Below are positions 8,088-60,040 of a stretch of 64,000 nt of DNA, piece by piece. The notes below the pieces were generated by a model. It saw only the letters and a program-made list of their open reading frames with translations. It was not told the DNA's origin and ran no database searches. The stretch is from Acidobacteriota bacterium (GTDB taxonomy: Bacteria; Acidobacteriota; Thermoanaerobaculia; Gp7-AA8), in the NCBI GenBank assembly GCA_034667465.1, contig JAXDJV010000013.1, forward strand, positions 188,303 through 252,302. The letters are read 5' to 3'. How positions within the stretch are numbered: the first letter of the stretch is position 1; each line of letters begins with the position of its first letter. A program made the position numbers and the translations under genes.

Positions 8088-8165
8088 CTGTGCTGAGTGC
8101 AGAGTGCTGAGTGCTGAGTAAAACCGGTCCCCGACTCAGCACTCTGCACTCAGCACTCTGCACCT
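8088..8165. repeat. REP-like palindromic element, copy A (GTGCTGAGTGCAGAGTGCTGAGTGCTGAGT arms)
   Basis: Inverted repeat of GTGCTGA/GTGCAGA heptads around a 14-nt loop. Closely related copies occur at about 24665..24760 and 41637..41730. Confidence 0.7.
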
Positions 8166-11967: not shown

Positions 11968-12942
11968 ATGCCGGGACCGATTACAGAGTTCATCCAGCAC
12001 CACTATCGCCACTTCAACGCGGCCGCTTTGCGCGCCGCGGCCGACGACTACATCAAACACCTCAACGCCGGGAACAGGATGCTCGTCACGCTTGCCGGCG
12101 CAATGTCGACCGCGGAGCTCGGAATCTCGCTCGCCGAAATGATCCGGCAGGACAAAGTGCACGCCATCAGCTGCACCGGCGCGAACCTCGAGGAAGACAT
12201 CTTCAACCTCGTCGCGCACGACCATTACGAGCGCGTGCCGAACTATCGCTATCTCTCCGCCGCCGACGAGAAGAAACTTCTCGATCGCCACATGAACCGC
12301 GTCACCGACACCTGCATCCCGGAAGGTGAAGCGATGCGCCGCATCGAATCGGCCGTGCTGAAGCACTGGGTCGACAAGGACAGGCAGGGCAAGCGACTCT
12401 TCCCGCACGAGTTCATGTTCGAGATTCTGCGCGACGGCTCGATCGCCGAGTTCTATCAGATCGATCCGAAGGATTCGTGGATGGTCGCCGCGGCCGAGAA
12501 GAACCTGCCGATGTTCGTTCCCGGCTGGGAAGACTCGACGCTCGGCAACATGTACTCCGGCCACTGCATCTCGGGCGACGTGAAGAACGTTCACACCGTT
12601 CGCACCGGCATCGAGTACATGATCGAGCTCGCCGAGTACTACACGAAAACGACCGAGTCGCAGTCGATCGGTTTCTTCCAGATCGGCGGCGGCATCGCCG
12701 GCGATTTCCCGATCTGCGTCGTGCCGATGCTCCATCAGGATCTGCAGCGCACGAACGTTCCGCTGTGGGGCTACTTCTGCCAGATCAGCGATTCGACGAC
12801 GAGCTACGGCTCGTATTCGGGCGCGGTGCCGAACGAGAAAATCACGTGGGGCAAACTCGGCGTCGACACGCCGAGCCACGTGATCGAGTCGGACGCGGCA
12901 ATCGTCGCGCCGCTGATCTTCGCCTACGTCCTCGGACTCTAA
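11968..12942 (+). CDS. Deoxyhypusine synthase family protein (homospermidine-synthase-like)
   Basis: Similarity to the DHS/HSS family across the whole protein ('TLAGAMSTAELG', 'FFQIGGGIAGDFP', 'SYSGAVPNEKITWGK'). Confidence 0.75.
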   Translation: MPGPITEFIQHHYRHFNAAALRAAADDYIKHLNAGNRMLVTLAGAMSTAELGISLAEMIRQDKVHAISCTGANLEEDIFNLVAHDHYERVPNYRYLSAADEKKLLDRHMNRVTDTCIPEGEAMRRIESAVLKHWVDKDRQGKRLFPHEFMFEILRDGSIAEFYQIDPKDSWMVAAAEKNLPMFVPGWEDSTLGNMYSGHCISGDVKNVHTVRTGIEYMIELAEYYTKTTESQSIGFFQIGGGIAGDFPICVVPMLHQDLQRTNVPLWGYFCQISDSTTSYGSYSGAVPNEKITWGKLGVDTPSHVIESDAAIVAPLIFAYVLGL

Positions 12943-12978
12943 AGTCAACTTCGGGGGTCTGACCCCCGAAATTGACTT
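12943..12978. terminator. Bidirectional hairpin between convergent genes
   Basis: aagtcaacttcggggg-tctg-acccccgaaattgactt: a 16-bp stem between the DHS stop and the VWFA stop. Confidence 0.6.
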
Positions 12979-15008
12979 TACTGCGGCACGATCGCCGCCG
13001 TGCTCTTCATCGAGTCGGCGGCGTTTTTCTTTTTCACGACGACGTCGAGCGCCGACGCGCCGGCCGGAACGGAATCGAGCTGCATGACGAGCTTCGTCGC
13101 GCTGCCGTTCTTCACCTGCCCGAGGTTCTTCGCGCGCGGCGTCGCTTCCCACGTCAGTTCGTCGGGTGACGCGTTGTAGACGAAGACCGTGAACTTGCGC
13201 GGCTGTCCGTTCTTCACGCGCACCGCGGCGCTCGGGATGAACATCTCGCCGCCGATCTCGAACGGATAGCCGGCGTTGGTCTGATCGTGCGAGCCGCCTT
13301 TCACCATCACCCAGTTGCCGCCTTCTTCGATGAACAGCGGCGGCGTGACGGCGACCTCGTTCGCGCGCGGCACGGTCAGCTCGGAACGTGCGAAGCCGCG
13401 CGCTTCCGTCTCCGGTACGCGCACGAGTGATTTCACCGCGTACGTTCCTGGCGGCACGCTGAGCGTCCCGTAATACTTGATGCCGCTGGCGCGCAGCTTG
13501 TCGCCGACCTTCGTCAGATCGAGCGACATCTTCTGATAGAGGCGGTCGCGCACGACGCCGCTGTCGTCGAATGCGTAGATGAAGATCTCGGCGTTGAGCG
13601 TGTTTCCTTTCGCGTTCTTCGTTAGGTCCGTACCGTTGATCTCGAGGATGACCGGGACCTGCGCGTTCGCGCCGGTGGTCGGGAACGCCGCGGTCAGCGC
13701 GGCGACGCCGAGGCCGCTTTGCGGGATGTCGTTGAGGATGATCTCCGCGTTCGAAAGGGAGCGTTCCGCCGCGGTCTCGCCGCCGAGCTCGTAGTAACCG
13801 GCGCGATGCGACGCGCGCGAACCCGACGGCACATTGACGAGCTTCACTTTCAGATCGTGGAAGCGGCCCGGCTTCGCGGTCGGCGACTGGAAGCCGAGGA
13901 CGTAGACGACCTCCTGCTGGCGAAGCATGCGTGCGAAGTCGTCGCTGATGCTGTTCGAGTTGCGGAAGACTTCGCCGCCCGTCGGCTTCGAAACGAGGAA
14001 CAGCGCTTCGTTCGAATTCACGCGCGTATTGCCGCTGGTGTCGTTGCGCGCGCCGGTCTGCAGATCGCCGTTCACGCGCACGCCCTGAATGTCGAACGCG
14101 TTGAGCACGACGTCGGAGCCGCGAAAGATGCGCGCCATTTCCTCGATGATCGTGACGCTGCTCGAGCTGCCGTAACGCGCATCGGAATCGACGGTGTACG
14201 CCTGACCGGTCAGCACCGCTTCGTTTTCCTTCCGGACTTCTTCGCTCGATCCGGGACCTCGCCCCTGCACCAGTTTCGGATCGAACCCTTCCGACAGGAG
14301 GATGATCTGCTTGCGTCCCGAGACGGCACGCAGCGTTCGGGCGAGATTGCCGAGTGTCGTCAGCTGCTTCTCGATGCGGCCGCGATTGAATGCGTCGTTG
14401 CTCCGGCTGACGCCGCGCGAGATTTCCTGGACCTGCTCGGCGGCGGCGCCACGGCCGCCCTTCAGGTTCTGGTCCTTCGCGTCATAGGTCGTCGTTCCGG
14501 CGATCTGCAGCGGATCGGTCCCATGAAACGTTTGCGGATTGCTGATCGCGCTCGCGAGCAGATCGCGGTCGGTGGTGAACGCGGTCGTGAGCCGATAACC
14601 CTTCTCCGCGTCGATCGTCGCAATCGCGACGAGATCGCGCGGACGAACGCTCGTCTTCAGAAACGAACGCGCCGCGTCCTGCGCGCGCACCATCGACGCC
14701 GGCGACGAGTACGTCAGATCGAAGAGCAGCATGAAGTTGCGCCGCGCCGCGGGGTTCAGCGGCGAGATCGCTTTCACCGACTCTTCCGATGCGAAGTCGA
14801 TCTTGTCGAACGACGTCACGCTGATCGGCTTGCCGTCGTCGATCAGCTGGAAGTTCGCGGCCGTCAGTCCGCGCACCGGATTGCCGTCGCGATCGACGAC
14901 CGTCACCGGCACCTCGACGATCTGGACGTTCACCGTCTCTTTCACCTGCGCGAGAAGCGGCACACCAATGACGGCCAGCAGCAGCAAACGGCTCAGAATC
15001 GCTTTCAT
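12978..15008 (-). CDS. Secreted VWA domain protein of the Acidobacterial VWFA-related (TIGR03436-like) family, paralog 1
   Basis: Signal peptide. N-terminal 'VNVQIVEVPVTVVDRDGNPVRGLTAANFQLIDDGKP' motif. Central VWA fold. C-terminal beta-rich domain. Confidence 0.8.
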   Translation of the reverse strand: MKAILSRLLLLAVIGVPLLAQVKETVNVQIVEVPVTVVDRDGNPVRGLTAANFQLIDDGKPISVTSFDKIDFASEESVKAISPLNPAARRNFMLLFDLTYSSPASMVRAQDAARSFLKTSVRPRDLVAIATIDAEKGYRLTTAFTTDRDLLASAISNPQTFHGTDPLQIAGTTTYDAKDQNLKGGRGAAAEQVQEISRGVSRSNDAFNRGRIEKQLTTLGNLARTLRAVSGRKQIILLSEGFDPKLVQGRGPGSSEEVRKENEAVLTGQAYTVDSDARYGSSSSVTIIEEMARIFRGSDVVLNAFDIQGVRVNGDLQTGARNDTSGNTRVNSNEALFLVSKPTGGEVFRNSNSISDDFARMLRQQEVVYVLGFQSPTAKPGRFHDLKVKLVNVPSGSRASHRAGYYELGGETAAERSLSNAEIILNDIPQSGLGVAALTAAFPTTGANAQVPVILEINGTDLTKNAKGNTLNAEIFIYAFDDSGVVRDRLYQKMSLDLTKVGDKLRASGIKYYGTLSVPPGTYAVKSLVRVPETEARGFARSELTVPRANEVAVTPPLFIEEGGNWVMVKGGSHDQTNAGYPFEIGGEMFIPSAAVRVKNGQPRKFTVFVYNASPDELTWEATPRAKNLGQVKNGSATKLVMQLDSVPAGASALDVVVKKKNAADSMKSTAAIVPQ

Positions 15009-24520: not shown

Positions 24521-24552
24521 CTTTTAAAGCAGTCCTGAGTCCTGAGTCCTGA
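24521..24552. repeat. Tandem heptamer (agtcctg x3, then agtgctc) in the TonB-dependent receptor leader
   Basis: gagtcctgagtcctgagtcctgagtgct, 10-40 nt upstream of the receptor ATG (minus strand). Related to the GAGTGCT heptads of the REP-like family. Confidence 0.6.
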
Positions 24553-24664
24553 GTGCTCGACGCGGGCATGACGCGCAGTTTCTTACTCGTCATTTGCCGT
24601 CCGGGCGGTCGGTTTGTTGTGATGGCGCGAATGTTAGGTCTGCCGGGCGCGTCTGTCAAGCCGG

Positions 24665-24760
24665 GAAAGGTGCTGAGTGCGAAGTGCTGAGTGCTGAGTC
24701 GGAAAATTGGCGGTCGCACCTGACTCAGCACTCTGCACTCAGCACTCAGCACCTCACAGG
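24665..24760. repeat. REP-like palindromic element, copy B
   Basis: ggtgctgagtgcgaagtgctgagtgctgagtc ... gactcagcactctgcactcagcactcagcacc, in the divergent region between the TonB-dependent receptor and pspA. Confidence 0.7.
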
Positions 24761-26166: not shown

Positions 26167-26799
26167 ATGTCGCTCCTCGCTCAACGCAAGAACCCCAGTG
26201 CGCCGCCTCGCCTCGACGGAAAAGAGCTGCTCGTCGGTCCCGACCCGAGCGTCTCCCGCGTGAAGGGCGTGATGTTCGGCGCGCGCAAACAGTTTCTCGT
26301 CGACACCGTCGGCGAGGAAGGCCTGGCCCGCGTCGTAGCGCGGCTTTCACCGCGCACCGCCGGCTACGTGAAGACGCCGCTGGCGTCGAGCTGGTGCGAG
26401 TTCGAATCGCTGGTGGAGCTCGATCGCGCGATCTACGACGAGCTGAAAGCAAAGCATCCGAACGTGCTCGCGCTGATCGGCGCCGCATCCGCGGAGCTCG
26501 GCATCGGCAAGGTGTACAAATCGCTCGACAGCACGGAACTGCTGAAGTTCCTGGAGAGCATCGCGCTCTTTCACACGCAGTATCAGAAGTTCGGCCGCGT
26601 GAAGTTCGAGAAGACGCCGAATGGCGGCCGAATGATCTACACCGACTACCCCTGCTACTCCCCCATCTTCTGCGCCAGCGCCCTCGGCTTCTTCCTCGAA
26701 TCAATCCTCCGCCACGGCGGAACCGATCCGAGCGTGAACGAGACGAGATGTCAGACGCATGGGGATGCTTCTTGTACGTTTGAGATGGCCTGGAGATGA
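26167..26799 (+). CDS. V4R (4-vinyl reductase)-like domain protein, DUF2378-like
   Basis: C-terminal 'ETRCQTHGDASCTFEMAW' matches the V4R C..GD..C.F motif. The listed ORF start (25720) is an Arg-rich artefact. In-frame ATG at 26167 follows the previous stop. Confidence 0.5.
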   Translation: MSLLAQRKNPSAPPRLDGKELLVGPDPSVSRVKGVMFGARKQFLVDTVGEEGLARVVARLSPRTAGYVKTPLASSWCEFESLVELDRAIYDELKAKHPNVLALIGAASAELGIGKVYKSLDSTELLKFLESIALFHTQYQKFGRVKFEKTPNGGRMIYTDYPCYSPIFCASALGFFLESILRHGGTDPSVNETRCQTHGDASCTFEMAWR

Positions 26800-26935
26800 A
26801 GGCATGAGGTATGAGTAATGAGGCATGAGTAAAAGCCTCTGACTCACCACTCATGCCTCATCACTCATGCCTCATTACTCATGCCTCATTACTCATGCCT
26901 CATTACTCATGCCTCATTACTCATACCTCATGCCT
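26800..26935. repeat. Hairpin plus a tandem 14-mer array (atgcctcat[t/c]actc, about 5 copies) immediately upstream of, and running into, the MBL-rhodanese start
   Basis: Direct reading: 14-nt units at 26853, 26867, 26881, 26895 and 26909. The left arm (26803..26838) is their reverse complement. Confidence 0.75.
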
Positions 26936-28267
26936 CTCTTTAAGCAGTTCTACCTCCCCTGCCTCGCCCACGCCTCCTACGTAATCGCCTCCAACGGCGA
27001 GGCGGCGATCGTTGATCCGCGGCGTGATGTCGATGAGTACATCGAATTCGCGCGCGAGCATGGGCTGACGATTCGTTACGTCATTGAGACGCATCTGCAT
27101 GCCGATTTCGTGAGCGGGCATCGGGAGCTGGCGGAGCGGACCGGGGCGGAGATCGTGTTTGGGGCGCGGGCGGCGGCGGAGTTGCCGCATCGCGCGGTGC
27201 GTGATGGCGATGTGCTGCGCGTTGGCGCGCTGGAGTTGCGCGCCATGGAAACGCCGGGACATACGCCGGAGTCGATCTCGTGGCTGATCATTGAAGACGG
27301 CGTGCCGCGGCGCGTGCTGACCGGCGACACGCTGTTCATCGGCGACGTCGGCCGTCCCGATCTCGCCGGCTCGCGCGGATTCACGTCGGAGCAGATGGCG
27401 TCGATGCTTTACGACTCGCTGCACGAGAAGCTGCTCGCGCTTCCCGACGATGTCGAAGTCTGGCCGGCGCATGGCGCAGGGTCGGCATGCGGACGGAACA
27501 TCTCGAAAGAAACATCGTCGACGATCGGCGTGCAGCGCCGGACCAACCACGCGCTCGCGCCGATGTCGCGCGAGGAGTTCGTCAACATGATGACTACCGG
27601 CATCTCGGCGCCGCCGGCGTACTTTCCGTACGACGCGGAGCTGAATCGCCGCGGCGCGCGTCCGCTCGCGGAACTGACCGCGAAGCCGCTCGCTGCTGAT
27701 GAGATCCGCGCAATGCGCGCAACGATTCTCGACGTCCGCGACGCCGCGTCATTCGGCGCAGGTCATGTCGCCAGCGCCGTCAACATCGGTCTCGATGGTC
27801 AGTTCGCATCGTGGTGCGGCACGCTGCTTCGCTCCGACGCGACGCTCGTCGTCTTCGCCGCGTCCACGCAGAAAGCGGCCGAAGCGGTGATGCGTCTCGC
27901 GCGCATCGGCTACGAAAACGTCGCCGGTTACACGACGTCGCTCGATGGCTTCGAAGTCGCGCCGCTCGGACAGATGAGCGTCGCCGAACTGCACGCCGCC
28001 CCGCTGCGCGTGGTCGACGTCCGCGGTCCCGGCGAGTACAGCGCGGGTCACGTTCCCGACGCGATCAACATTCCGCTGCCCGAGCTTTCCGCGCGGCTCG
28101 GCGAGATCGATCGCGATGGCGCACTCGCCGTGATCTGCGCCGGCGGCTATCGCTCATCGGCGGCCGCGAGTCTGCTCGCGCAGGCCGGTTTCGCGCATGT
28201 GATCAACGTCGCCGGCGGTACGTCGGCGTGGGTGCGCGAAGGCTTCGCGACCGACGTCTCAGCCTGA
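26930..28267 (+). CDS. MBL-fold metallo-hydrolase (persulfide dioxygenase/ETHE1-like) fused to two rhodanese domains
   Basis: 'HLHADFVSGH' metal-binding motif. 'TPGHTPESI'. 'GDTLFIGDVGRPD'. Two rhodanese folds, the second with the active-site 'ICAGGYRS'. N-terminus 'MPLFKQFYLP' fits ETHE1-like starts. Confidence 0.8.
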   Translation: MPLFKQFYLPCLAHASYVIASNGEAAIVDPRRDVDEYIEFAREHGLTIRYVIETHLHADFVSGHRELAERTGAEIVFGARAAAELPHRAVRDGDVLRVGALELRAMETPGHTPESISWLIIEDGVPRRVLTGDTLFIGDVGRPDLAGSRGFTSEQMASMLYDSLHEKLLALPDDVEVWPAHGAGSACGRNISKETSSTIGVQRRTNHALAPMSREEFVNMMTTGISAPPAYFPYDAELNRRGARPLAELTAKPLAADEIRAMRATILDVRDAASFGAGHVASAVNIGLDGQFASWCGTLLRSDATLVVFAASTQKAAEAVMRLARIGYENVAGYTTSLDGFEVAPLGQMSVAELHAAPLRVVDVRGPGEYSAGHVPDAINIPLPELSARLGEIDRDGALAVICAGGYRSSAAASLLAQAGFAHVINVAGGTSAWVREGFATDVSA

Positions 28268-38362: not shown

Positions 38363-38890
38363 ATGCGCGGGCAGATGTGGATGGCCGGGGTGGCGCTGGC
38401 AATGGCCGGATGCGCAACGTCAACGTCATCGGTCCGCCAGTGCGCGCAGCTCAGCGGACTTTACGAACCGTCGAGCTGCATTCAGGAAGAGCCGAAGCCG
38501 CTCACCGATCTGCAGCTTCCCGACGGCACGCCGCTCGCCGGCGTCAGATTCCTCACCGTCGAACAGACGTCGTGCAATGAAGTGCGCATCGTCTCCAAAG
38601 GCCGCGCCGACATCGTCCTCCGTCCGGACGACGACGATCACGTGACGTGGGACGACAACGGCGCGCTCGCCGGCGGTTCGGAGCCGAAGAACAGCTTCGT
38701 CCCGATCGCCGCCGCGATGCGCTCGTTCCGCGAGTGGCGACTCTCGCGCTCGAACGCCGGCACCGGACTCACCTACAGCGACGCGCGCGAAGAGCGCGGC
38801 ATGGCGCTGCTGCTGATCCCGTTCCGCAATCGCATCGCCGCGACGTGCGAGTGGATCCGCGTCGCCGCGTCGTCGCTCGTGCGGCCTTAG
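38363..38890 (+). CDS. Hypothetical lipoprotein
   Basis: 'MRGQMWMAGVALAMAGCATS' lipobox. Start chosen among in-frame ATGs at 38363, 38375 and 38381. Confidence 0.4.
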   Translation: MRGQMWMAGVALAMAGCATSTSSVRQCAQLSGLYEPSSCIQEEPKPLTDLQLPDGTPLAGVRFLTVEQTSCNEVRIVSKGRADIVLRPDDDDHVTWDDNGALAGGSEPKNSFVPIAAAMRSFREWRLSRSNAGTGLTYSDAREERGMALLLIPFRNRIAATCEWIRVAASSLVRP

Positions 38891-38892
38891 GA

Positions 38893-39000
38893 CCGCGGGC
38901 GTCCTCGCCCGCTGGACAGGCCGGCGTCTCGCCGGGCTTCAGGGGCGAGGCGAGGGCGAGACGCCCTCGCGTCCAGCGGGCGAAGACGCCCGCGGTCCAA
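38893..39000. repeat. Long GC-rich palindrome (about 28-nt arms, 27/28 paired) between convergent genes
   Basis: ggaccgcgggcgtcctcgcccgctggac ... gtccagcgggcgaagacgcccgcggtcc, with an internal sub-palindrome cgtctcgcc...ggcgagacg. Confidence 0.65.
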
Positions 39001-39005
39001 ACCCT

Positions 39006-40259: not shown

Positions 40260-41632
<1,373 letters not shown>

Positions 41633-41636
41633 AAAA

Positions 41637-41730
41637 TCAGTGCAGAGTGCTGAGTGCTGAGTGCTGAGTCGAAAAGCCTTCGTGCCGGCCGGTTTGACTC
41701 AGCACTCTGCACTCAGCACTCAGCACTTTC
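41637..41730. repeat. REP-like palindromic element, copy C
   Basis: agtgcagagtgctgagtgctgagtgctgagtcg ... gactcagcactctgcactcagcactcagcact, between the FtsX permease stop and the regulator start. Confidence 0.7.
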
Positions 41731-59946: not shown

Positions 59947-60040
59947 CGTCATCCCGAGCGTAGCGAGGGATCCGGGTGGGCGGGGCGAACCGCTCTCTCG
60001 TGCCCCGCCCGCCCGGATCCCTCGCTACGCTCGGGATGAC
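59944..60040. terminator. Very long GC-rich perfect hairpin (about 40-nt arms) immediately after the amidase stop
   Basis: gtcatcccgagcgtagcgagggatccgggtgggcggggc ... gccccgcccgcccggatccctcgctacgctcgggatgac. No clean T-run, so it is REP/terminator-like. Confidence 0.55.

Follow-up and report, generated by a model that had tools for sequence, protein, structure and literature searches.

A heptamer-repeat hairpin between a V4R-like gene and an MBL-fold/rhodanese gene in Acidobacteriota belongs to a fast-changing family of intergenic palindromes

The window analyzed here, a stretch of 64,000 nucleotides (64 kb) from an Acidobacteriota bacterium, contains an operon with the gene order pspA-hyp-V4R-MBL, in which pspA, a gene encoding a 205-aa product and V4R, the third gene, are contiguous. 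The V4R-like gene (26167 to 26799, plus strand, 210 aa, JGI gene call) shows a weak match to Pfam V4R (E = 5e-4, under the curated cut-off) and ends with a TGA stop at 26797-26799. The MBL gene (26930 to 28267, plus strand, 445 aa, start at 26930 in the JGI call) encodes an MBL-fold/double-rhodanese protein with matches to Pfam Lactamase_B and Rhodanese. The junction between both genes is occupied by a repetitive element of 136 nt that begins at 26800, the base next to the V4R stop, and whose last repeat unit supplies the MBL ATG together with codons 2 and 3 (Pro-Leu), the window protein beginning with MPLFKQFY.

Tandem Repeats Finder (TRF) described the tract at 26849-26931 as an array of period 14, with 5.9 copies of the unit ACTCATGCCTCATT, 97% matches and a score of 152, and scored the same tract also as period 7 with 12.4 copies, each 14-nt unit being formed by two related heptamers, CTCATGC and CTCATTA. 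To the left, 2.1 copies of the complementary 14-mer (period 14) were called by the same program at 26804-26832, and the left arm contains 3.1 to 4.7 heptamer units. A repeat finder paired the arms 26800-26832 and 26903-26935 at 33 of 33 positions with 70 nt between them, and detected four additional shifted registers at 93-97%, the arms being themselves internally tandem-repetitive. The predicted RNA fold of the junction reached -70.7 kcal/mol, compared to -38.8 +/- 3.8 kcal/mol for shuffled sequences (z = -8.5). These results bear out the 14-nt array, its fusion to the MBL start and the long hairpin separating the V4R stop from the MBL start that the original prediction had proposed from the sequence.

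Four segments, all read on the plus strand, make up the element. The left arm (26800 to 26832) consists of 4.7 heptamers of the form AG-NNN-TG, in the order AGGCATG, AGGTATG, AGTAATG, AGGCATG and AGTAA, and is followed by a non-repetitive spacer (26833 to 26848, AAGCCTCTGACTCACC) that extends to the first unit of the right arm and was probably the original loop. The next segment (26849 to 26902) contains about 3.9 copies of ACTCATGCCTCATT without a partner in the left arm, and the distal right arm (26903 to 26935), which contains the MBL start codon, complements the left arm perfectly. The hairpin is thus asymmetric, with 4.7 heptamers on the left and 12.4 on the right, and the left arm pairs perfectly with the distal 4.7, the 54 nt of unpartnered units forming a large loop in the minimum-energy fold. 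The MBL ATG is paired in this distal register only, whose bare helix was calculated at -58 kcal/mol vs -44 to -49 kcal/mol for the other registers. As the unpartnered copies are near-perfect over their 54 nt while the outermost stem is perfect and includes a compensated T/A variant (GGTATG / CATACC), the simplest reading is that the two arms of the window copy were earlier symmetric, at about 33 + 33 nt, and that the right one would have recently gained around four 14-nt units.

The window covers 64 kb of a 361-kb JGI metagenome contig that belongs to an Acidobacteriota MAG. Within the DNA examined, which comprised these 64 kb of the contig, the exact 14-nt unit was found at this locus only, and a scan of viral contigs for two 14-nt units gave zero matches. 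Searches of the whole window against Rfam 15 at gathering thresholds also gave zero matches. At E <= 1 the locus produced only sub-threshold matches, almost all of them against miRNA-precursor hairpins of eukaryotes (16-31 bits vs thresholds of 62-102), which is attributable to the generic shape of a long hairpin. A CRISPR array was discarded since the repeat units are contiguous, without spacers, and G-quadruplex formation was discarded since the heptamer units are not G-rich. An assembly artefact was likewise rejected, because the left arm in an independent Logan assembly (L003) is identical to that of the window, its contig then breaking inside the repeat, and because orthologous hairpins are present in many MAGs.

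Because the unit length is not a multiple of three, the ATGs of the array had been expected to rotate through the reading frames, as they do: those at 26853, 26867, 26881, 26895, 26909 and 26930 lie in frames 0, 2, 1, 0, 2 and 2, respectively, so that 26867 and 26909 share the MBL frame with 26930, the upstream in-frame stop ending at 26842. The NCBI annotation of the same genome places the MBL start at 26909, within the array, and JGI at 26930, a disagreement that reveals how the array generates ambiguity in start annotation; relatives are likewise annotated with N-terminal extensions encoded by the repeats. The orthologous MBL proteins begin with M(L)FKQFY immediately downstream of their respective spacers, and 26930 is therefore the start supported by homology. 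In exact-protein look-ups, the protein starting at 26930 was found in one contig only and a 452-aa form was known to NCBI, and the window agrees with the NCBI MAG protein over the part that they share. No Shine-Dalgarno sequence could be read ahead of the upstream array ATGs. Consensus scans for promoters and terminators detected nothing within the element, no terminator at 26800-26945 and no promoter for MBL downstream of the hairpin, which is followed by CTCTCTTTAAGC, a sequence without a T-tract.

Four further heptamer-array loci were found in the window, giving five with the V4R-MBL element, and matches to a degenerate unit pattern numbered 25, against 0.66 expected. Three of them are hairpins with GTGCTGA and ACTCAGC arms. 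The first, (GTGCTGA)4.3 / (ACTCAGC)4.3, is located on the plus strand at 8090 to 8163, between the genes of a YjbQ-like protein and a pyridine-nucleotide-disulfide oxidoreductase; the second lies at 24668 to 24754 (plus strand), upstream of pspA in the intergenic region of two divergent genes; and the third, at 41639 to 41727 on the minus strand, fills the spacer between an FtsX-like permease gene (stop at 41729) and the gene of an NtrC-type regulator (start at 41632). The fourth locus is a solo array, (AGTCCTG)3.4, at 24531 to 24554 (plus strand), placed in the 5' leader of a TonB-dependent receptor gene encoded on the minus strand. In the three GTGCTGA hairpins the right arms are near-identical 30-mers with the variant unit ACTCTGC at the same position in all three, and the loops are different. 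The AGTCCTG arm was found at two loci with the same AGTGCTCGA end.

To place these arrays in their lineage, related loci (designated by L numbers) were drawn from genome and metagenome collections and through exact-protein look-ups. Counting TRF rows with at least 2.8 copies, the related Acidobacteriota loci (340 kb) gave 55 rows of period 7 and 4 of period 8, compared to 1 row of period 7 in 267 kb from other phyla. Around 18 of the arrays in related loci pair into hairpins, and the overall density of hairpins is about one per 15-20 kb. Arm length has its mode at 4.x units, a value shown by 37 of 67 arrays (overall median 4.4), equivalent to a preferred arm of about 31 nt, and 12.4 units are reached only by 2 of the 67 arrays, the right arms of the window and of L036. 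In the arrays of the window, L004, L024, L047, L049 and L050, all units are of the AG-NNN-TG form, with a constant TGAG/CTCA core and three variable bases. More distant relatives carry unrelated units, such as GGGACAG at the V4R-MBL junction and GTTCTTA, AGGATTG or CGGTAGT elsewhere. The genes that flank the hairpins of the family share no common function. The V4R-MBL element is, in consequence, one member of a fast-changing, lineage-wide family of intergenic heptamer palindromes in these soil Acidobacteria, and the four additional arrays in the window together with the dozens found in relatives argue against a device specific to the sulfur-dioxygenase-like MBL gene.

At the orthologous V4R-MBL junction, a hairpin was present in about 6 of 9 lineages. 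Its arms are (AGTCCTG)4.6 / (CAGGACT)4.4 in L004, L047 and L048, (GACTGAG)n / (CTCAGTC)n in L024, L049, L050 and L052, and (GGGACAG)n / (CTGTCCC)n in L034. In L036 the hairpin is (GTGACGA)3.4 / (ACTCGTC)12.4, asymmetric as in the window, and in L025 it is built of 8-nt units. All of these hairpins fold far better than shuffled sequences (z from -3.6 to -10.9). The junction is empty in L029, L042, L053 and L054, where the stop and start codons overlap (TAGTG, or an ATG 10-11 nt inside the end of V4R), showing that V4R and MBL constitute one operon with translational coupling. A comparison between the window and L004 revealed identical flanks up to TGAAG and from TTYAAGCAG, with everything in between being different; L047, whose junction is of the AGTCCTG type, has an MBL gene with 92% nucleotide identity to that of the window, and L050 and L051 encode an identical V4R protein next to different types of hairpin. 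The position of the start codon also varies. In L034 the single in-frame MBL start lies upstream and the entire hairpin is translated in frame, and for L024, L049 and L050 it falls on a loop ATG, preceded by GAGGA at 7 nt, with translation of the right arm. Start-codon use is thus non-uniform among L034, L024, L049 and L050, which speaks against a tuned coupling device.

Occupation of the same junctions by arrays of varying length and sequence was observed across relatives at V4R-MBL, TonB-PspA, ClC-cNMP and the orthologous junction of L026 and L038, the latter carrying hairpins with mutually unrelated units. The hairpin upstream of pspA (24668 to 24754) has orthologous copies in L004 and L024. 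In L053, zero arrays were found in 19.7 kb, and its YjbQ/oxidoreductase junction shows overlapping genes (GTGA) and no hairpin. Rearrangements within the arrays were also detected. The order of the units is shuffled among L024, L049 and L050, and the loop of L047 is the reverse complement of that of L004 (20/21 positions plus a 3-nt indel), with the arms remaining collinear and their asymmetric variants in place, indicating that the loop flipped between the inner arms. Pairs of assemblies (window/L003, L047/L048 and L050/L052) were identical over their shared parts, with the Logan contigs L003, L048 and L052 breaking inside the repeat. From these comparisons we infer that the arrays grow, shrink and shuffle their units via replication slippage, and that inter-arm templating or recombination may keep the two arms complementary. 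The idea that the array is a substrate for slippage is sustained by the roughly four near-identical extra units in one arm only, and by orthologous arrays that differ in copy number and units.

Gene context was assigned from flank-wise calls of codon-position GC and manual reading. The same-strand hairpins examined begin within 0-7 nt of the stop codon that lies upstream, or have the stop within their first unit (TAGTTCT, TAGGATT, TAGTAGT or CGGTAGT), and end 0-20 nt before the next start, once at about 60 nt. Around eight of the independent sites are located between same-strand genes, two between divergent genes and one, in L041, between convergent genes. The absence of convergent sites among 11 had given p ~0.09, a value computed before L041 was recognized as convergent, and with so few sites a random intergenic distribution could not be rejected, so no statistical claim is made on context. 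Coupling of a stop to the following start cannot apply at the two divergent sites and the convergent one.

Arrays with comparable architecture have been described in other bacteria. In Xanthomonas campestris and X. axonopodis, GGGAATC heptamers form mostly intergenic arrays at about 180 loci per genome, including 70-75 cases in which two convergent arrays on opposite strands constitute inverted repeats (Rehm et al. 2015, PMC4692102). Most of these arrays are found at the same junctions in related species, with variations in length and sequence and conservation of the single or paired type, and they have no established function (PMC4692102). The Xanthomonas units are G-rich, with one unit predominating in each genome, and were studied as G-quadruplex formers, whereas those of Acidobacteriota are diverse (TGAG + NNN) and not prone to form G-quadruplexes; furthermore, flush placement from stop to start, replacement of units at orthologous sites and inversion of the loop are features of Acidobacteriota not reported for Xanthomonas. 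In Geobacter metallireducens, the class 3 "global regulator binding sites" are multicopy and contain five tandem heptamers with the consensus MTYCTGA (Aklujkar et al. 2009, PMC2700814), and classes 1 and 2 are pairs of 8- to 9-nt units on opposite strands at variable distance, class 3 being drawn as strand-switching alike (PMC2700814). The Acidobacteriota arrays resemble them in the number of tandem heptamers at each site, four to five, in being intergenic and multicopy, and in the CTGA common to MTYCTGA and GTCCTGA/GTGCTGA. The Geobacter sites, by contrast, belong to another phylum and were only annotated and interpreted as protein-binding, without comparative or structural analysis. The V4R-MBL element has all four features of heptanucleotide inverted pairs, namely three or more tandem copies, a complementary array on the opposite strand, intergenic presence at multiple loci and the same junctions in relatives, and we therefore assign it to the known intergenic kind represented in Xanthomonas and Geobacter.

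Other repeats share only part of this description. The TAACTGA repeats of marine Beggiatoaceae, cyanobacteria and Bacteroidetes appear in 2-6 copies just upstream of the starts of unrelated genes, and a role in translation has been proposed for them (MacGregor 2015, PMC4679880). As in Beggiatoaceae, the Acidobacteriota arrays are close to the starts of functionally unrelated genes and their units contain stop triplets, and the V4R-MBL element matches the TAACTGA type in its position at the ATG; in contrast, the Beggiatoaceae repeats are nearly all direct (169 sets vs one indirect) with a single unit, whereas those of Acidobacteriota are mostly inverted pairs with many units, so the element does not fit a type defined as unpaired with one fixed unit. 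The REP/BIME sequences of Enterobacteria and Pseudomonas are scattered extragenic palindromes in which the stems are conserved and the loops vary, frequently located in operons near stop codons (PMC3733652, PMC12306157), where they stabilize the upstream mRNA and, if no more than 15 nt away from the stop, make ribosomes stall (PMC12306157). REPs, however, are single imperfect palindromes of 20-40 nt with a GTAG/CGTC tag and linked to RAYT, whereas the arms of the Acidobacteriota elements are tandem arrays, and as no GTAG/CGTC tag was found at the ends of the V4R-MBL and GTGCTGA copies these do not comply with the REP definition. Heptanucleotides are, as summarized in later papers, an over-represented class of simple sequence repeats in many bacteria, for which slippage related to the polymerase footprint was proposed (Mrazek et al. 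2007, via PMC4679880 and PMC4692102). The repeats of such surveys and the tandem heptanucleotides of Calothrix PCC 7601 are, in those same summaries, direct, whereas the elements of Acidobacteriota are palindromic and extend from stop to start. Full-text literature searches on repeats, one of them with the name of the phylum, found no description of such arrays in Acidobacteriota.

Taken together, membership in the heptamer family, arrays made by slippage and a REP-like intercistronic stem that keeps coupling compose the explanation that, on balance, we favor. The most likely role of the V4R-MBL element would be that of an intercistronic hairpin of REP type, by which the stop and start codons stay next to each other with the start masked. 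The hairpin would be transcribed within the operon mRNA, where its very stable stem would loop out the repeats and the base of the stem would set the V4R stop (26797) beside the MBL start (26930), leaving the ATG within a paired segment. On terminating at the end of V4R, a ribosome could melt the first 12 nt or so of the left arm and free the ATG, and in this way translation of MBL would stay coupled to that of V4R despite the 130-nt insertion, as in relatives with overlapping genes. The stem may also behave as REPs do, acting as a barrier to 3' exonucleases and as a brake on terminating ribosomes, with protection of the upstream RNA. In the growing RNA, the left arm would pair first with the proximal units and settle afterwards in the distal register; changes in copy number would then modify the size of the loop and the number and choice of pairing registers, with a modest quantitative effect and not an on/off one.

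The main rival to this coupling-keeping hairpin is that the element is neutral or selfish DNA, which arises incidentally from slippage and template switching or from another copying process, persists where it is harmless and has no meaningful effect on V4R or MBL. The ad hoc start codons of L034, L024, L049 and L050, some of them inside or upstream of the hairpin, have the look of tolerated insertions, and the polymorphism of two junctions, filled in some close relatives and empty in others, the complete replacement of units where the flanking genes have about 92% nucleotide identity and the lack of a common function among flanking genes are also what this explanation expects. Against it, a hairpin occupies the V4R-MBL junction in about 6 of 9 lineages, compared to an overall density of around one per 15-20 kb, the 33/33 stem of the window copy includes a compensated variant, and a stem of -58 to -70 kcal/mol placed over a start codon and abutting a stop is unlikely to be silent. 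We regard neutrality as possible, short of probable; the explanations that follow rank lower.

Slippage alone would not lead one to expect the preference for arms of about 31 nt, the conserved TGAG core or the near-identical 30-nt arms at three unlinked loci, which hint at a sequence-specific factor or a mobilizing enzyme. In the first case, the arrays would be recognized, as RNA or DNA, by a trans-acting factor with the TGAG/CTCA heptad as its target, or would be ribosome-holding repeats similar to SD/anti-SD sequences, forming a post-transcriptional regulon. Apart from the constant core with its three varying bases and the arm preference of about 4.4 units, this would agree with the location of arrays immediately ahead of start codons, in L050 within the leaders of the two divergent genes as well, and with the presence of GAGG, AGGA or GGAG in many units, to which the GAGGA 7 nt before the loop ATG in L024, L049 and L050 can be added; the same idea was proposed for the TAACTGA repeats of Beggiatoaceae (PMC4679880). 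We nevertheless consider it unlikely, because distant relatives have unrelated units at the same junction with no single conserved motif, no candidate factor was identified, and the SD-like enrichment is a post hoc count over about 17 unit types.

In the second case, the hairpins would be non-autonomous mobile elements of the REP/MITE type copied by a transposase such as RAYT (Y1), and the window copy would have recently replaced a hairpin of the AGTCCTG type. Filled and empty sites among relatives, the shared right arms of the three GTGCTGA hairpins with ACTCTGC in place and different loops, and the AGTGCTCGA end shared by the AGTCCTG arm at two loci are compatible with copying. Such mobility seems doubtful to us, since the boundaries examined showed neither a target-site duplication nor a terminal GTAG/CGTC tag, the 14-mer unit is absent elsewhere in the DNA examined and in viral contigs, and a non-systematic look identified no transposase. 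A further reading, in which the stop-to-start hairpins are a distinct and actively maintained intercistronic class in Acidobacteriota, installed by a dedicated factor that reads the heptad or by an enzyme that copies the arms, also appears improbable to us. If true, palindromes with arms of about 31 nt would be written exactly at overlapping stop/start junctions with preservation of coupling, and the ratio between upstream and downstream proteins would be tuned through the turnover of units, the flipping of loops and the expansion of single arms.

The terminator that had been suggested for this hairpin is not upheld. Because no T-tract follows the stem, its tail being CTCTCTTTAAGC, and the terminator scan was empty at the element, the intrinsic-terminator reading fails, which leaves a terminator or attenuator between V4R and MBL of the kind without a U-tract reported in some high-GC bacteria. 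The very stable stem directly after the stop codon and the L041 hairpin between convergent genes would suit this function; we judge it quite improbable, however, given that no promoter for MBL was found downstream of the hairpin, that the genes overlap in the relatives that lack it, indicating co-transcription of V4R and MBL there, and that some hairpins lie in divergent promoter regions. Least probable, and in our estimation very much so, is the contingency or phase-variation locus that the original prediction had also put forward, with 14-nt slippage switching MBL through upstream ATGs, an N-terminal extension or the 5' structure: a long tract with 97% matches, a one-arm expansion that records past slippage, the in-frame ATGs at 26867 and 26909, the latter used by one annotation pipeline, and the tolerance of repeat-encoded N-terminal extensions in relatives would favor it, but the start at 26930 is on the 3' edge of the array downstream of all the variable units, so that gain or loss of 14 nt cannot shift its frame, the tract is neither in frame nor between promoter hexamers, the upstream ATGs lack Shine-Dalgarno sequences, independent assemblies are identical where they overlap (with most contigs breaking inside the repeat), the flanking genes are of housekeeping or stress type and not surface antigens, and the same kind of array adjoins unrelated genes. 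The hairpin, the array fused to the start and the gain of units by slippage are thus supported, whereas phase variation in the classical sense and intrinsic termination are not.

Among long simple repeats, heptanucleotides show the strongest over-representation in many bacteria and are frequently found as inverted pairs, with no established function or generating mechanism (PMC4692102, PMC4679880), and the Acidobacteriota loci constitute unusually clean comparative material, with filled and empty junctions, unit replacement, a flipped loop, a preferred arm length and flush placement. Two questions become testable with them: whether palindromes are tolerated because looping out preserves coupling, and whether they act on mRNA stability or termination as REPs do. 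On the practical side, heptamer arrays break short-read assemblies, in addition to confounding start annotation. Finally, the solo AGTCCTG array located in the leader of the TonB-dependent receptor gene has one unit more in L004 than in the window, and in L050 the partner of this apparently solo arm was found 150 nt away, directly before the pspA ATG.

In the lineage carrying the GACTGAG-type hairpin, named for its 7-nt repeat unit, the sole in-frame start codon of the MBL-rhodanese (MBL) gene is an ATG located in the loop between the paired heptamer arms, preceded 7 nt upstream by a GAGGA that is contributed by the left arm (related loci L024:5609-5672, L049:2000-2050 and L050:10664-10712). 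The right arm is predicted from the sequence to be translated in these three loci, as MN[GD]A[EK]R.SPQSSVL..., and in another related locus, L034, the complete hairpin lies in frame within the predicted coding sequence. For the window, two public annotations of one genome place the MBL start differently, JGI at 26930 (445 aa) and NCBI at 26909, within the repeat (452 aa, MEA2570131.1).

Comparison of the AGTCCTG-type hairpin from the V4R-MBL junction of two related genomes showed that the loop of L004 (9941-9965) is the reverse complement of that of L047 (366-389), with 20 of 21 positions matching and a 3-nt indel, despite both arms being collinear. Because the loop is inverted while the arms are collinear, this alignment indicates that the inner arms have recombined with each other or that a template switch took place between them.

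In L050 (8410-8611), the entire divergent spacer between the TonB-receptor gene and pspA is flanked by (AGTCCTG)4.4-AGTGCTCGA and TCGAGCACT-(CAGGACT)4.4, with the two arrays separated by about 140 nt, and therefore the same array lies just 5' of the start codons in both divergent leaders. In the corresponding spacer of the window, the left AGTCCTG arm alone remains, the right side being taken by a GTGCTGA hairpin.

Unpaired direct arrays of one heptamer were found in two different Acidobacteriota MAGs, as (GTTGCCG)4.9 in a Thermoanaerobaculia MAG, where it precedes the MBL orthologue by about 30 nt (L005:9030-9063), and as (GGTTGCC)7.1 in L035:5490-5539; some units are therefore common to distant genomes. 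Across the window and loci L004-L050, many units contain Shine-Dalgarno-like (GAGG, AGGA, GGAG) or anti-Shine-Dalgarno-like (CCTC, TCCT) tetramers, which by a post hoc count occur in about 7 of 17 unit types versus roughly 15% expected. Many units also carry stop triplets, so that a stop appears in every frame within three units.

The window contains other palindromes. A long hairpin at 59948-60040, of which heptamers are not the basis, has 39-nt arms (GTCATCCCGAGCGTAGCGAGGGATCCGGGTGGGCGGGGC and its complement, 97% complementary), and its GTCATCCCGAGCG...AGCGAGGGATC motif is similar to a repeat that is widespread in the genomes of soil bacteria. An imperfect GC-rich palindrome at 38887-39001 (47-nt arms, 87% complementary) overlaps a 24-nt tandem repeat at 38954-38999. 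Finally, a near-perfect 20-nt palindrome at 12940-12980 (TAAAGTCAACTTCGGGGGTC / GACCCCCGAAATTGACTTTA) sits precisely between two convergent ORFs, whose ends are at 12942 and 12978, and may be a bidirectional terminator.
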